Source: Eledone cirrhosa
Taxonomy: Eukaryota
Assembly (NCBI GenBank): GCA_964016885.1
Contig: OZ024741.1
Location: 107,384,001 to 107,448,000 of the forward strand
Length of the DNA stretch: 64,000 nucleotides
Reading direction: 5' to 3'
Part shown: positions 1,564 to 60,670 of the stretch, in pieces
How positions within the stretch are numbered: position 1 is the stretch's first letter
Layout of the letters: each line of letters begins with the position of its first letter
Notes under the pieces: generated by a model
What the model was told of the DNA's origin: nothing
The model's database searches: none
Seen by the model: only the letters and a program-made list of their open reading frames with translations
Made by a program: the position numbers and the translations under genes

Positions 1564-1675
1564 CAAAGAGGGTGTGGTAAGATACCAGGTAGACCATAAC
1601 GCACCAGAGTACTCAATACTTAGGGTAGTAGAGTGGGTAATAGGAAAAGAGTCAGGACTCCTGACTCCCTTCCTA
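1564..1675 (-). mobile_element. Family A short PLE-like fold-back element (tail plus short hairpin 1641-1675)
   Basis: Same tail as 5427, 13082 and 59607. Hairpin taggaaaagagtcagga/tcctgactcccttccta runs into (TA)n. Confidence 0.75.
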
Positions 1676-1751
1676 TATATATATATATATATATATATAT
1701 ATATATATATATATATATATATATATATATATATATATATATATATATATG

Positions 1752-2420
1752 TAGAATTCACAAGAATCAAAGCTATGTTCAAAACATTTATTCACTTACA
1801 ATTGTTTCATCCAAACCTAGGCTTGGGGTCTTCGGACCATTTTTTAATGCTTGTACATATAATTGACCTCAAATCCAACGCAAGAGACTATAACTTCCTT
1901 TTTCTTTTTCTTTTTCTGCACACATACTTCTTTGATCTATAAAAAAATACCCTCTCACTACAACCACCATAATACTCTTGCGTACCCGCTTAAAGTGCTT
2001 GTATTACATGCAATACCTTGCCACACAATACTCGTATATAAATGAGACACACTTGCATGCTCCATGTATGACTTACGCATACACTATCTACTAGATCCGA
2101 TTATCGGACTATTCTCTTGCATTATCTGTGTTATCTGCCGCATGTATTTTAATTTTAATTTTGATTTTAAATTTGAATTGCTATACAAATATAGTATAGT
2201 ATAATATATGTCTCTCCACAGTACATCAATATATATATATATATATGTCTCTTGCGATGAAACAATTGTAAGTGAATAAATGTTTTGAACATAGCTTTGA
2301 TTCTTGTGAATTCTATATAACTGCTCTGTAGAACAACTGATGTTCTTACATTGAGCTATTTATCTTACTGGTAATAAGGTAGTAATAAATTACTGACCTT
2401 CCCTGTTTGTAGTTTAAAAT
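1752..2420. mobile_element. Family H PLE-like element with 60-bp perfect inverted arms (1752-1811 / 2256-2315)
   Basis: Arms are exact reverse complements and contain GAAA-CAATTG-TA. Minus strand 1790-1835 reads ccgaaga-hairpin-gaaa-caattg-ta, a degenerate hammerhead. Confidence 0.65.
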
Positions 2421-2524
2421 ATACATATCTATAAAAAGTTTAATATATACATAACTATAAATAGTATCCTTAATATTATATATATATATATATATATATA
2501 TATATATATATATATATATACATA

Positions 2525-3810
2525 TACTTTTCTTACTCTTTTACCTGTTCCAGCCGACTGGTTGAGCCCGTGCTGGGGTACCACCACGGTCATTACACTT
2601 TCTGTATTACTTGGTTGGCCATTGCTGTTAGAAGGGGCTAGTGGCTGCTTCCTTTATTTGTACTTCGTCTTGTGCTGTGTGTTCATCTGGGATCTTGGTT
2701 AGCAGAATTTCGAGATTATTCTTGAAAAGATCTACATACTCACCATGTTGATCTCTCAGTTATTTGTTCGGCTTACTAAAGAGCTTGGGGCCTTTGAACC
2801 TCAGGCTATTGCATCATTTGCCCCTTATTATAGACATGAAGGATGGGATCTTTGGTGCTACACAGTGACATCATGTTGAAGATTTGGATCCACTTTCAAT
2901 GCTAAAGTACGGTGCTAATTCTTTCAGGATCTTCCATATGCATATCACAGCGTATCTTTCTCGTCTTTGTTCCAGGGAATAAAGCTTTAGTTTTTTCAGC
3001 CTCTCTCAGTAGTTCATCTCATTTATCGAGTCAATATTCAGGTTTTGCAGTTAGTTTGACACAATGAGAGATCACAACTGAGAAGTATATGGCAGTCAGC
3101 TGCGGACAAATAGCCTCCATAGGACTAACGTGGTTTGTCTGTCTTTTGTCCTAAATGTCCTCAGAATCTATCCAGCCACTTGTTTGCAAGTTCCGTATTG
3201 ATTTCGACCCGGGGATTTCGATTCCTCTCGGTTCAATGTAACATTGTTTTGTTGGCGAGTTGATAGTTGAGGGTTTGAAATTTTCCAGCATTAAAATTTG
3301 TGTACGACATCAAAATCTCGTAAGAGAGTAGCATGAGCCGGATTGATGAGTGTCTGCGCTACTTTCGTGGCCTCAACATAACTAGTGAATGAGGCTGTCT
3401 ATACCACGGAGGACATGTCTGAGGGAGCTAATACAAACAGCAGTGGTGCCAGGACAGTTTCCTGGAGCATACTCATTTTTATTGATGTTTCTTTGAGAGG
3501 ACTCCTTTGGCTGCAACAGTCTGGATTCTGTCTCTTAAGAATTCATGAAGCCATTCACCTAATTCCCCAACTATATTGAAACTACATATGTTATGAGATA
3601 TCATTCCATGATTATCTTTATCGAAGGCCTTCGCAAAGTCGAGATATATCATATCCATGTTCGAACGGTGTAGCACCTGTTCCAGTACCAAGCCTAATGG
3701 TGTAAGAGCTGTGTAAGGCAACTTCTTCCCGGGCGAAAGCGATGTTGGGTGTCAGTAGGGCATTTCCGTCGAGGAAGGCAATCAATTCCCTTTTGAAGTT
3801 TCGTGACATG
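2525..3810 (-). mobile_element. CR1/L2-type LINE remnant (RT and 3' end), degraded
   Basis: ORF 3479-3721 reads DMIYLDFAKAFDKDNHG...GEWLHEFLRDRIQTV, the non-LTR RT YLDFxKAFDxVxH motif. Many stops and frameshifts. Confidence 0.85.
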
Positions 3811-4406
3811 ACTTCGTGTTAAGATCATAAACAGTAGTCGTTAGACATGCTCAACCAACCGTGACGCCTAAACCAATCAGCTTTAGTAATCCAGTGAAAC
3901 TACACACCGATTGGTCGAAATACAGTTTGCAAAATTTAGCATCCTGTTGCCGCTTTTCACTGTATATAAGGTACAAAATTTACCCATCTCATTACAATTG
4001 AAAATTGAAAACTTGACTGTCACCACAGAATATGAACCTGAAGATTGCGAAAGCATGAAAGTACTTGTTAAATTAACACTTAACATTTAATATTCTACCA
4101 TACTATTTCATTCTAATACCATTATACATTTTAAAGGATTGTAAATAAAACGAATAAATCAGACAAAGTTGGAATTCCTTTTATTAATATATATATAAAT
4201 ATAAGTATGTATACGTACATACATATATGTATACAGACGTATAGTAGTATGTATATATACACATACATGCACACATATATATATGTACGTATGGATTTAG
4301 CGAACATTTATTATAATGCTCGGTTTGTTTGTAAACAAACAGCCCGAATTAAGACGTACAGTGTTAAGCAACTATCGTTGCCCTTTTGTTCAACACTGAC
4401 AAAGGA

Positions 4407-4449
4407 ACGATGTACTAATTTCAAGCTTATTAGCTATCGTCAGCACCGT
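4407..4449 (-). ncRNA. Minimal type I hammerhead ribozyme motif (family B)
   Basis: Reverse complement: acggtg-CTGACGA-tagctaataagctt-GAAA-ttag-TA-catcgt. Helix I acggtg/catcgt has one G-U; helix II is agct/agct. Confidence 0.65.
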
Positions 4450-4812
4450 ATACCTTCCTGCCAGATGATTGAACGTCTGAAAGTATATACTTTCCTTATG
4501 CATATTAACGGTTGAGCAGCCTAATTTGCATATCGAGTGAGTTAATCGGCCGGGCGCACCAAAAACGATAAATGGAAAAAATGAAACGAAATTTCATTTC
4601 TCACTCTTAGTACGGCTGTTACTTAAATATAAGTATGTATACGTACATACATATATGTATACAGACGTACAGTAGTATGTATATATATACATACATGCAC
4701 ATATATATCTATATATGTACGTATGGATTTATCGAACATTTATTATAATGCTCGGTTTGTTTGTAAACAAACATCCCGAATTAAGCCGTACAGTCATCTG
4801 GCAGGAAGGTAT

Positions 4813-58508: not shown

Positions 58509-58756
58509 ATTGGACGGATAGGTGTCCTCATCTTGTTTTGTTGTTAACACAACGTTTCGGCTGATGTACTCTTAAAAAAAAAAAAAGTGGTTAAAAAGCG
58601 GGCTACTAACCTCAAGATTCCGAGTACAATTCTAGGCAGTGACCTAAACAAACGCTAATAATAACATCACTAGGACACCTGGTGAAGGCTGGAGCGTACA
58701 TCAGCCGAAACGTTGTGTTAACAACAAAACAAGATGAGGACATCTATCCTTCCAAT
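58509..58756. mobile_element. Family E fold-back element: 61-bp inverted arms (58509-58569 / 58696-58756), hammerhead motif 58674-58719
   Basis: gacac-CTGGTGA(A6>G)-aggctg..cagcc-GAAA-cg-TT-gtgtt. The spacer holds a tRNA-like fragment. Confidence 0.7.
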
Positions 58757-58881
58757 ATATACAATGTAAATAATTCCTCGTTTCAAAAATATAGAACAGT
58801 AATATATATATAATATAGAACAGTAATATAGAACAGTATTATATATATATATATATATATATATATATATAGATAGATATA

Positions 58882-59744
58882 TAACGGGGGAAGTGTGGTA
58901 AGGACCATAACGTTCCAGAGTACTCAATACTCAATACTTAGGGTAGTAGAGTGAGTAATAGGAAAATACTCAAGATCCTGACGGCAGAGCTCAAGCCGTT
59001 TCGACAGCTATTTCTGGACTCTCGAGTCCAGAAATAGCCGTCGAAACGTCTTGAGCTCTGTCGTCGGGGTCTTGAACATTTTGCTGTATATATATATATA
59101 TATATATATACATATATATATATATATGTGTGTGTGTGTGTGTATAGGAAAAGGGAGTCAGGACCATGACCGCTAAGCTCCGGACGTTTCCACAGCTAGA
59201 TATGAACAGTTCGGATCTAGCTGTCAAAACGGCCGTAGCTCAGCCGTCGCGGTCCTGACTCTTTTCCTATTACCTAGACTACTATCCTAAGTATGGTCCA
59301 TCTGGTATCTTACCACACCTTCTTTGTTTATATATATATATTATATATATATATATATATACATTATATATATATATATATATATATATATATATATATA
59401 TTATATATATATATATATATATATATATATATATATATATATTATATATTATATATATATATATATATATATTATATATATATATATATATATATTATAT
59501 ATATATATATATATATATTATATATATATATATATATATATTATATATATATATATATATTATATATATATATATATATATATATATATATATATATATA
59601 TATATATAACGAAGGAAATGTGGTAAGGAACCAGATGGACCATAACGCACCAAAGTACTCAATACTTAGGGTAGTAGAGTGGGTAATAGGAACGAGTAGG
59701 ACCCCGACGGCTTAGCTCAGCCGTCGGGGTCCTACTCGTTCCTA
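58882..59744. mobile_element. Cluster of three family A fold-back elements (58882-59086, 59145-59330, 59607-59744)
   Basis: Hairpins 58959-59086, 59145-59269 and 59687-59744, each with the family tail, separated by TA-rich tracts. Confidence 0.8.
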
Positions 59745-60047
59745 TATATGTATATATTCATATTTCATATTTTTCCTTATGGATTCATTTTACTTATTTC
59801 TTAATAAATGGAGTATTTTCTTTATTTTGTTTTTTTAGGTTATGGAATAGGAACCAACCTTCTTGTATTGTTCCTCTTGTAATCGTTTCGCTCTTTTCTT
59901 GAATAGCTTAGAATTTTACATTCGAGTATGTATATTATGTTTATTTGAAACCTGGATCTCCCGTTGCACGACTTCACTTCATCTTGGGGATTTTTTGACA
60001 CACACACACACATATATATATATATATATATATATATATAGAGAGAG

Positions 60048-60232
60048 AGATGAGATTCTACAGGACTAGAACTGTTTCATTCTTTAGAAGTCATCAGGAA
60101 TCCTGATGATTTCTAAAGAATGCAACAGTTCTAGTCCTGTAGAATCTCATCTATATTAAAACTTTTATACTCTGCTATGTATTGAGTACCTTACTTACTG
60201 TGGTTACCTCCGATTCAACCCTGAATAACTTT
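60048..60232. mobile_element. Family D palindrome (60048-60152) plus tail; intact hammerhead motif on minus at 60054-60102
   Basis: Near-perfect palindrome centred at 60100. Reverse complement gattc-CTGATGA-cttctaaagaat-GAAA-cag..ctg-TA-gaatc. The plus arm has GCAA instead of GAAA. Confidence 0.75.
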
Positions 60233-60254
60233 ACGTGTATATATATATATATAA

Positions 60255-60670
60255 GTTGAAAAAAATGAAAACGAAATTTCATTTCTCACTCTTAGTATGG
60301 CACTTACTTAAATGTAAGTATGTATGTATACGTACATACATATATGTATACAGACGTACAGTAGCATGCATATATATATATATATATATATATATATATA
60401 TATATATATATATATATATATATATATATATACAAGTACACATACATATATGCACGCATCAGTTTAGCGGACGCTTATTATAACGCCGCTTTGTTCGTTT
60501 GTCAACAAACTGAACAGCCTGAATTTATGCCATACGGTGTTAAGGCAACCACGTCACCTTTTTGTTCAACACTGACACAGGAACGATGTACTAGTTTCAA
60601 GCTTGTTAGCTATCATCAGCACCGTTTACCCATCTGCCAGATAGTTGAACGTTCGAAAGTATATATATAT
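60255..60670 (-). mobile_element. Family B single unit with hammerhead motif 60583-60625
   Basis: Reverse complement acggtg-CTGATGA-tagctaacaagctt-GAAA-ctag-TA-catcgt. Confidence 0.75.

Follow-up and report, generated by a model that had tools for sequence, protein, structure and literature searches.

The question raised by this locus, a 64-kb window of the Eledone cirrhosa genome, is whether its many hammerhead motifs belong to nine unrelated families of micro-retroelements (A–I), as a sequence-only reading had proposed, or to the ends of larger elements. We consider it very probable that six of these families are the 3′ ends of separate ORF-bearing Penelope-like elements (PLEs), as G likely is too, likely left behind as stubs in (TA)n, and that B is a tandem unit, closed and non-coding, which such an enzyme likely copies in trans. 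This answer is based on linkage to ORFs, motifs of the clades, adjacency to TA, 3′ ends that fall into two clusters in several families, inverted partners and the closed B unit.

Using a variant-aware descriptor, nine complete canonical type I hammerheads and two with variant cores (one U3-A8, one CCGUCGA) were found in the window, and 100 shuffles yielded 13 motifs in total (11 versus a mean of 0.13 per shuffle, maximum 2), a real excess over shuffled controls. With a strict type I descriptor the window gave seven motifs, and every one of 30 block dinucleotide shuffles gave none. A family match was present at every listed coordinate of families B–I, and once degenerate copies are included the count exceeds 15 motifs per 64 kb, as proposed. 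Motifs absent from the earlier list were located at 4038(+), 20333(−), 21866(+), 40722(−), 61733(−) and possibly 16695(+); the third is a complete canonical hammerhead of a further family (21862..21941, + strand, core at 21866), while the lone U3-A8 match at 16695 could be due to chance, since its class scored nine times in the 100 shuffles. Genome-wide, one motif class gave 126,121 matches versus 6,651 with the reversed pattern (~120,000 copies, or ~40 per Mb as estimated from whole-genome pattern counts), and further patterns gave 25,525 (B, exact motifs), 4,866 (A) and 1,422 matches versus 0.

The type I core order with helices I–III was evident from the descriptors, the fold of A and the pairs of D. 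The hammerheads are real as sequence motifs, with self-cleavage only predicted. Most short motifs folded no better than shuffles, and for several of them (B, C, D, H and I) the minimum-free-energy structure was not the hammerhead. An Rfam scan of the window returned no hammerhead model among the 150 of 321 matches listed, which were microsatellite-driven and mostly of miRNA models. The CUGANGA core ascribed to every family from B to I is absent from C (CCGUCGA) and H (CCGAAGA).

Family A had been described as keeping only a GAAA-CGGCCG-TA half, which proved to be a misreading: GAAACGGCCGTA behind a CUGANGA core had 0 genome matches. The correct parse is a UUGANAA core followed by GAAA-CGGC-loop-GCYG-UC-GGGG, a full U3-A8 hammerhead with a predicted cut after GUC, and it is this form that accounts for the 4,866 matches. 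We had also entertained an A family without a hammerhead (0 matches, local hairpin), an option rejected when the full element revealed the U3-A8 core. Position 7 takes all four bases, the remaining core being fixed by the search pattern, and A folds as a three-way junction at minimum free energy (locus L238). The fold-back stub in the window (5428..5651, + strand) comprises the pLTR end and tail of a Hydra-clade PLE and retains the 3′ half of the motif (GAAA at 5608–5611, predicted cut after C5630), its 5′ half having been lost through truncation; other A pieces lie at 1564–1656, 12144–12410, 13083–13304, 22118–22252, 58902–59085, 59144–59328 and 59619–59745. The intact tandem unit of A is 3,542–3,543 bp long and 99.75–99.94% identical, with 784–786-aa frames, and a full single ORF with RT and C-terminal GIY-YIG lies upstream of the repeat. 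This ORF carries all five motifs that define Hydra by the criteria of PMC8557442 (RW(K/R), with RWR for RWK; DKT; CxCX5C; CxxC; CxH) and resembles Hydra-1_Obim by eye; PLE placement relied on such motifs and on this comparison. A cognate endonuclease was found upstream in 17 of 30 loci, five of them from one array (the 30 genomic loci per family here and below being top-ranked matches rather than random copies).

Endonuclease ends were also present upstream of C, E, F, H and I, and the Hydra assignment of C, F, H and I means that these pieces are Hydra-type. The C fold-back stub (5707..6190, + strand) contains a hammerhead at 5973–6060 with core CCGUCGA (U4C and A6U), and further copies occur at 27207–27455(+) and 30635–30796(−). 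None of 30 C copies matched the strict descriptor, their cores being CCGUCGA or CCGANGA, with U4C plus A6U in about two-thirds. Same-strand Hydra-type matches were seen at 10 of 30 C loci, colinear over at least 1.4 kb in five. A link of C to the ORF of locus L325 was rejected, as C lies downstream of it at the seed locus only (1/30), across a TA tract. The F fold-back stub (11785..12063) has two complete hammerheads, with cores at 11890(−) and 11958(+); the ORF end lay 680–714 nt upstream in 7 of 30 loci and was inverted in five more, and endonuclease pieces of F and A were 34% identical (E 9e-28). Family H is represented by an inverted stub (1748..2319; hammerhead at 1793–1839(−), core CCGAAGA, i.e. 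U4C) and a half copy (2256–2319, + strand), with a canonical core in just 1 of 30 copies and the ORF at five places, offset by 313–370 nt. The I stub (46840..47010, − strand, core at 46941) has as a relative the complete, previously unlisted hammerhead at 40722(−); its ORF was upstream in 9 of 30 loci, colinear over at least 1 kb in seven. CUGANGA is thus present in F and I and absent in A (UUGANAA), H and C, a canonical hammerhead being a reported Hydra trait and not one that defines the protein.

The E fold-back stub (58504..58800, + strand; core at 58679, one core change in this copy) represents the 3′ end of a Poseidon-type PLE; in a set of 30 loci, 24 rows merged into 17 places where a Poseidon-type ORF lies 35–164 nt upstream. 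Family G, with a stub at 40370..40600 (− strand, degenerate hammerhead at 40452–40487) and a second copy at 22873–22982(−), had broken, motif-read Neptune-like GIY-YIG remnants upstream in three of eight loci (weak blastp, E 0.011–0.046) and is likely the 3′ end of an ORF-bearing PLE as well. For D (fold-back at 60048..60235 with a complete hammerhead, core 60097(−); further copies at 5199–5327(+) and 17417–17479(+), the latter complete) no parent ORF was reached, the shared upstream sequence ending in TA/TG repeats; the Hydra ORF of locus L519 was not accepted as its parent, being separated from D by a TA tract and by a hammerhead of that ORF. Pairing in D was counted after 9 of 59 distinct sequences had been dropped (eight with the helix I 5′ arm replaced at a junction, one further copy); 91% of cells were paired and 12 had changes on both sides, versus 0 of 500 shuffles. 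The covariation comes from two pairs among related sequences, and a shift by one column scored much the same (0.070 versus 0.077).

The prediction that 5′ extensions would reach PLE ORFs was therefore borne out for A, C, E, F, H and I, with broken ORFs for G and none for D. Seven of the nine families run upstream into PLE ORFs, five of them in one clade, which contradicts their description as unrelated micro-elements; a lack of shared primary sequence was nonetheless seen by blastn with 11 window queries, only I matching its relative at 40722.

Two ORF remnants, at 20440–21060 and 62091–62425, had been proposed as the source of mobilising proteins. Both are indeed PLE pieces, but not parents of A–I: each represents a different family and bears a hammerhead in its own pLTR, for which reason neither is shown to have mobilised A–I, and six families (A, C, E, F, H and I) are each linked to a cognate ORF. 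Family J (20130..21330, + strand) is an old remnant consisting of an inverted pLTR, a broken C-terminal ORF (20430–21060) and a pLTR, with a degenerate U3-A8 hammerhead at 20333(−). Family K (61569..62460, − strand) is an internally deleted Neptune-like PLE in which an RT piece (62094–62423) is joined to the endonuclease end, followed by a pLTR with a degenerate hammerhead at 61733; a full single RT plus GIY-YIG ORF was found upstream of the K repeat. Clade calls are motif-based, since a Pfam scan of 11 ORF pieces identified just two, one with a score below cut-off.

Adjacency to (TA)n was upheld: (TA)5+ occurred within 200 nt downstream in 18–30 of 30 genomic copies per family, compared to 26–47% of random flank positions, although part of the B score reflects an internal TA stretch. 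For Hydra-clade families A, C, F, H and I, (TA)n was nearby in 23–29 of 30 copies versus 26–39% in controls. Most copies had also been called fold-backs, which overstates the case, as only 8 of 16 listed B–I copies fold back; among the top 30 genomic copies, fold-backs ranged from one (G) and two (C) up to 25 (E), with counts for A and D biased by the query. Distances to TA, marking 3′ ends, formed two clusters in C, F, H and I. Together with the anatomy of locus L061 and the A tandem array, these provide the pLTR, tandem or inverted copies and tail. The architecture common to the families is the published PLE insertion footprint.

Family B differs in its organisation. An inverted array (4196..5119) has one core at 4443(−) and another, in a motif with a mismatch in helix I, at 4819(+); a unit with an inverted partial copy (41264..42043, + strand) contains a complete canonical hammerhead (core 41787); and a copy of another subfamily without fold-back (60257..60665, − strand) contains a complete one (core 60619). 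Tandem arrays had a period of 420–500 bp. All 42 distinct tails ran into TA (15) or into B's own start (27), and its own tail preceded the B start in the 100 matches listed of 8,040. The longest frame, 80 aa, indicates a non-coding unit, and each tandem unit has one type I hammerhead, as is required of a retrozyme. No PLE pLTR matching B was found and no B-mobilising enzyme was identified. Judged by its sequence, B is a closed non-coding 420–500-bp unit, i.e. a non-LTR retrozyme, likely copied in trans by a PLE-type enzyme. Octamer-like and TATA-like words were observed upstream within the unit at 41264..42043.

Following published PLE biology, a GIY-YIG endonuclease would nick (TA)n, RT would start at two sites inside its own RNA, producing the tail, and early RT termination, often with a second inverted copy, would leave a stub, which would always retain the hammerhead because the motif lies near the 3′ end. 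The short palindromic helix III of B, C and E–I would permit cutting as dimers only or with protein help, while in A and D helix III could form within a single copy. Most single stubs are probably inert.

The proposal of PLE derivatives is thus retained as regards PLE origin and truncation, with A, C, E, F, H and I leading to GIY-YIG ORFs at fixed offsets and G to broken ones, but not as regards non-autonomous micro-families, except for B and possibly D. That all nine are independent non-autonomous micro-retroelements served by one source of RT and endonuclease is improbable: the closed non-coding unit of B, the missing ORF link of D and the mutually unalignable DNA sequences of the families would fit, but a cognate ORF at a fixed upstream offset already refutes the idea for six families, and the window's two ORF remnants bear different hammerheads. 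We give even less credence to fold-back stubs being self-moving units like hairpin MITEs, with the hammerhead as a passenger. Many D copies fold back at an identical base beside the core and A stubs are mostly hairpins; however, both queries favoured fold-backs, loops and apices of A differ between copies, D, C, G and H frequently have no inverted arm, and the arm often comes without a tail, as in PLE insertions (PMC8557442). Chance matches in AT-rich, microsatellite-rich sequence, as might be suspected from the nine U3-A8 matches in 100 shuffles, are scarcely credible and are refuted by the shuffle, reversed-pattern and zero-count comparisons above.

Reading most families as PLE ends, we compared them with known systems. 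Metazoan PLEs are reported to carry ~2,000–9,000 minimal type I hammerheads per genome (Cervera and De la Pena 2014, PMC4209133), and the available text of that paper describes, as here, several consensus families in a genome, motifs that are mostly single and come from truncated PLEs, opposite-strand pairs 100–700 bp apart, palindromic helix III and a U3-A8 core variant. Unlike in that text, one class here reaches ~120,000 copies and the U3-A8 motif of A combines a long helix II with a helix III of 5 bp; no counterpart to the family-wide U4C and U4C+A6U cores was found in it. The Hydra clade, including Hydra-1_Obim of Octopus bimaculoides (Craig et al. 2021, PMC8557442, available text), shares with the present elements RWK, DKT, CxCX5C, CxxC and CxH, (TA)n insertion, the series of pLTR, inverted 5′-truncated copy and tail, and a hammerhead close to the 3′ end; a single 64-kb window here adds no fewer than five Hydra families. 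Canonical hammerheads are called universal in Hydra in that text, whereas A, C and H of our five families have non-canonical cores, and searches with a CUGANGA-only descriptor miss these three.

Like animal non-LTR retrozymes, as far as described in the available text of Cervera and de la Pena (2020, PMC7229834) and Li et al. (bioRxiv 10.64898/2026.07.22.740005), B is a tandem, non-coding repeat whose units span a few hundred bp and carry a single type I hammerhead each, occurring as monomers to multimers alongside PLEs in the same genome. Counts given there are >6,000 in 16 families for Acropora, ~5,000 for Mytilus and 126,247 for axolotl; the one motif class of ~120,000 copies here is close to the axolotl number, but denser. 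Unlike those retrozymes, for which circular RNA is a described trait, B is known here from genomic DNA, where its tail, inverted junctions and TA flanks are direct footprints of PLEs. For PAc Poseidon in vitro, the available text of Frangieh et al. (2024, PMC11167929) explains the tail by AT-rich cleavage together with RT initiation at two internal sites, which fit the two 3′-end clusters of F, H, I and C, and reports a hammerhead that required protein for cleavage and on which insertion did not depend.

The hammerhead findings as such are the expected footprint of known elements, given earlier publications on hammerheads in pLTRs, on genomes with many families, on inverted stubs, on (TA)n as a target and on Hydra in Octopus. 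Dimeric PLE hammerhead variants were reportedly described by Lunse et al. in 2017 and may already include the cores found here. Our literature search found no cephalopod hammerhead census, and the words 'hammerhead' and 'ribozyme' are absent from the main text of the O. vulgaris repeat paper. What the hammerhead contributes to PLE transposition, studied in PAc Poseidon as the one in vitro system (PMC11167929, available text), becomes testable here with sister C subfamilies (A6 versus U6) and the young, intact tandem element A. More tentatively, the genome may serve as a natural library of hammerhead cores, one of the densest that our search found reported, with whole PLE families transposing despite cores expected to be slow (U4C; U4C plus A6U), and B as a retrozyme of 25,000 copies that has an octamer/TATA promoter of its own and is pasted by PLEs. 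If so, either PLE protein would rescue cleavage or the fold would serve as a protein-binding signal, and the B ends would directly show a PLE enzyme inserting B. Finally, 3′ UTRs here measured 1–2 kb, and the Hydra elements described in the available text of PMC8557442 are <3 kb.

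Hammerhead motifs occurred above chance in the window, which is AT-rich and crowded with microsatellites: a strict type I descriptor returned seven hits and none in 30 shuffles, while a second descriptor admitting known core variants returned nine canonical motifs, one with a U3-A8 core and one with a CCGUCGA core (total of 13 across 100 shuffles). A family match was present at every coordinate that the sequence-only reading had given for B–I of its nine hammerhead-associated families (A–I), and additional hammerhead families were found at 4038, 20333, 21866 and 61733. Across the 3.0 Gb genome, one pattern class, defined by a canonical core and four inserted bases in helix III, was matched 126,121 times versus 6,651 for the reversed pattern (~40 per Mb); six motifs of this class in the window correspond to approximately twice the genome average. 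Examined genomic loci (~1.96 Mb) held 270 distinct canonical motif sequences, several more U3-A8 families and a second family with a CCGUCGA core, unrelated to C and differing in its paired helices. A 283-bp direct repeat at 16239–17073, with copies 552 bp apart between TA tracts, is possibly another tandem unit or a pair of pseudo-LTRs (pLTRs); the U3-A8 hammerhead-like motif at 16695 (+ strand; helix I 9 bp, helix III 8 bp) belongs to a core class also occurring in shuffles.

Core sequences required revision in three families. H, said to contain CUGANGA, has the core CCGAAGA, and one of 30 copies passed the canonical scan. A had been credited with half a motif, and proved to be a family with a full hammerhead motif and a compensated U3-A8 core (4,866 genome matches versus 0 for the control), in which position 7 takes all four bases. 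A three-way junction was predicted at minimum free energy for one A copy, helix II of another A subfamily (locus L191) appeared by eye to be altered on both sides, and the A copies inside the window are truncated within loop II. The C motif gave 1,422 genome matches versus 0 for the control; in a hand count of the first 100 listed, 93 had C at position 4, and position 6 was occupied by 65 U, 34 A and one C, so the window subfamily is U4C plus A6U while sister subfamilies retain A6. U4C has a viroid precedent, and A6C reduced activity (PMC3088659); U3-A8 cores in hammerheads of Penelope-like retroelements (PLEs) are already described in PMC4209133.

Parentage was assessed by walking upstream in other genomic copies. 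For A this led to an intact Hydra-clade element of 3,542 bp, which has A as its pLTR and stands in a tandem array of near-identical units; the cognate ORF was present at 17 of 30 loci, and one ORF resembles Hydra-1_Obim. A Hydra-type endonuclease lay beyond a long 3′ UTR upstream of C (10/30 loci), F (7/30 sense, 5/30 inverted), H (five places) and I (9/30). E directly follows, in 17 places, an ORF labelled Poseidon-type on motifs we presume to be diagnostic. Broken remnants preceded G at three of eight loci, and their linker motif weakly suggests a Neptune-like label. The walk from D was traceable for 340–680 nt before being lost among simple repeats, reaching no ORF. The PLE attribution was thus upheld by ORFs upstream of A, C, E, F, H and I; overall, the motifs of the sequence-only reading are real and their PLE origin right, with several details wrong.

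Neither of the two ORF remnants credited with mobilising the families is the parent of A–I, and each comes from a family with its own hammerhead. For the remnant at 62094–62423, a full copy of the family (L061, 1,246 aa) runs TA, inverted pLTR, pLTR, ORF, pLTR, TA and has its own hammerhead, degenerate in the window at 61733. The remnant at 20430–21060 belongs to an old family (hits 70–80% identical) whose pLTR carries a U3-A8 motif, degenerate in the window at 20333. A word which we take to be YY1-like lies upstream of the hammerhead in the pLTRs of G (40600–40610) and of the 62094–62423 family (61790–61800). Another abundant PLE family (L330–L358, L457, L458) has 818–900-aa frames with Pfam RVT_1 and GIY-YIG and a mostly CCGAAGA pLTR hammerhead, an independent U4C case.

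Among the best 30 copies per family, i.e. top hits, (TA)5+ lay within 200 nt downstream in 24 (A), 26 (B), 23 (C), 30 (D), 18 (E), 29 (F), 21 (G), 28 (H) and 29 (I), against 26–47% of random flank positions. Inverted partners accompanied 14 (B), 2 (C), 25 (E), 13 (F), 1 (G), 6 (H) and 23 (I) of 30, and 30 (A) and 28 (D) where the query itself selected fold-backs; eight of the 16 B–I copies listed for the window were fold-backs. End-to-TA distances fell into two clusters for C, F, H and I. Many D fold-backs, in a sample chosen by that fold-back-selecting query, turn at one near-palindromic five-base site, the helix I 5′ arm (60098–60106; L100–L128).

PLE insertions show 5′ truncation and frequently an inverted copy plus tail, Hydra elements prefer (TA)n (PMC8557442), and the tail stems from two internal RT start sites (PMC11167929). 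The stubs (short truncated 3′ ends) would then be abortive insertions, in which the hammerhead presumably survives owing to its position close to the 3′ end; B would probably be moved in trans by a PLE enzyme. The basis of this account was seen directly, as ORF linkage, TA adjacency, two distance clusters and inverted partners; weak Pfam support for ORF pieces, modest covariation in D and folding without significance for most short motifs count against it, as does sampling by top hits.

B (25,525 exact motif copies genome-wide) forms arrays of a 420–500 bp unit with inverted junctions, in which no long reading frame was found. Its tail was followed only by TA or by B's own start (42/42), and that start was preceded by B's own tail in the 100 listed of 8,040 matches. 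Upstream of the hammerhead (41690–41750), B subfamilies share an octamer-like word together with a TATA-like palindrome, which may resemble newt satellite 2's snRNA-type promoter. A second retrozyme-like family is arranged in 310-bp tandem arrays that include an inverted junction, and the period of a third is 466 bp (loci L068 283–1213, L456 8896–9516 and G000:C1:1239857–1244284).

A multiplicity of families within one genome, single motifs left by truncated PLEs, and motif pairs on opposite strands, as here, were already described in PMC4209133. PMC7229834 gives 16 families for a coral and, for axolotl (28 Gb), 126,247 motifs, so the present count is no record, though its density is ~10 times higher; a 2026 preprint (bioRxiv 10.64898/2026.07.22.740005) derives retrozymes from pLTRs.

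The window also contains a minisatellite (33010–33765; 17-bp unit, 44.5 copies, 97% matches) and ~25 dispersed copies of a ~190–200-bp SINE, presumably of tRNA origin, with a 203-bp tandem array at 47063–48078. Two overlapping minus-strand frames (361 and 179 aa; 44806–46039) resemble what we take to be a DNA-transposon protein. An open 1,204-aa LINE-type frame lies ~6 kb left of the window (L327 804–4415), with decayed relatives at 51799–52636.
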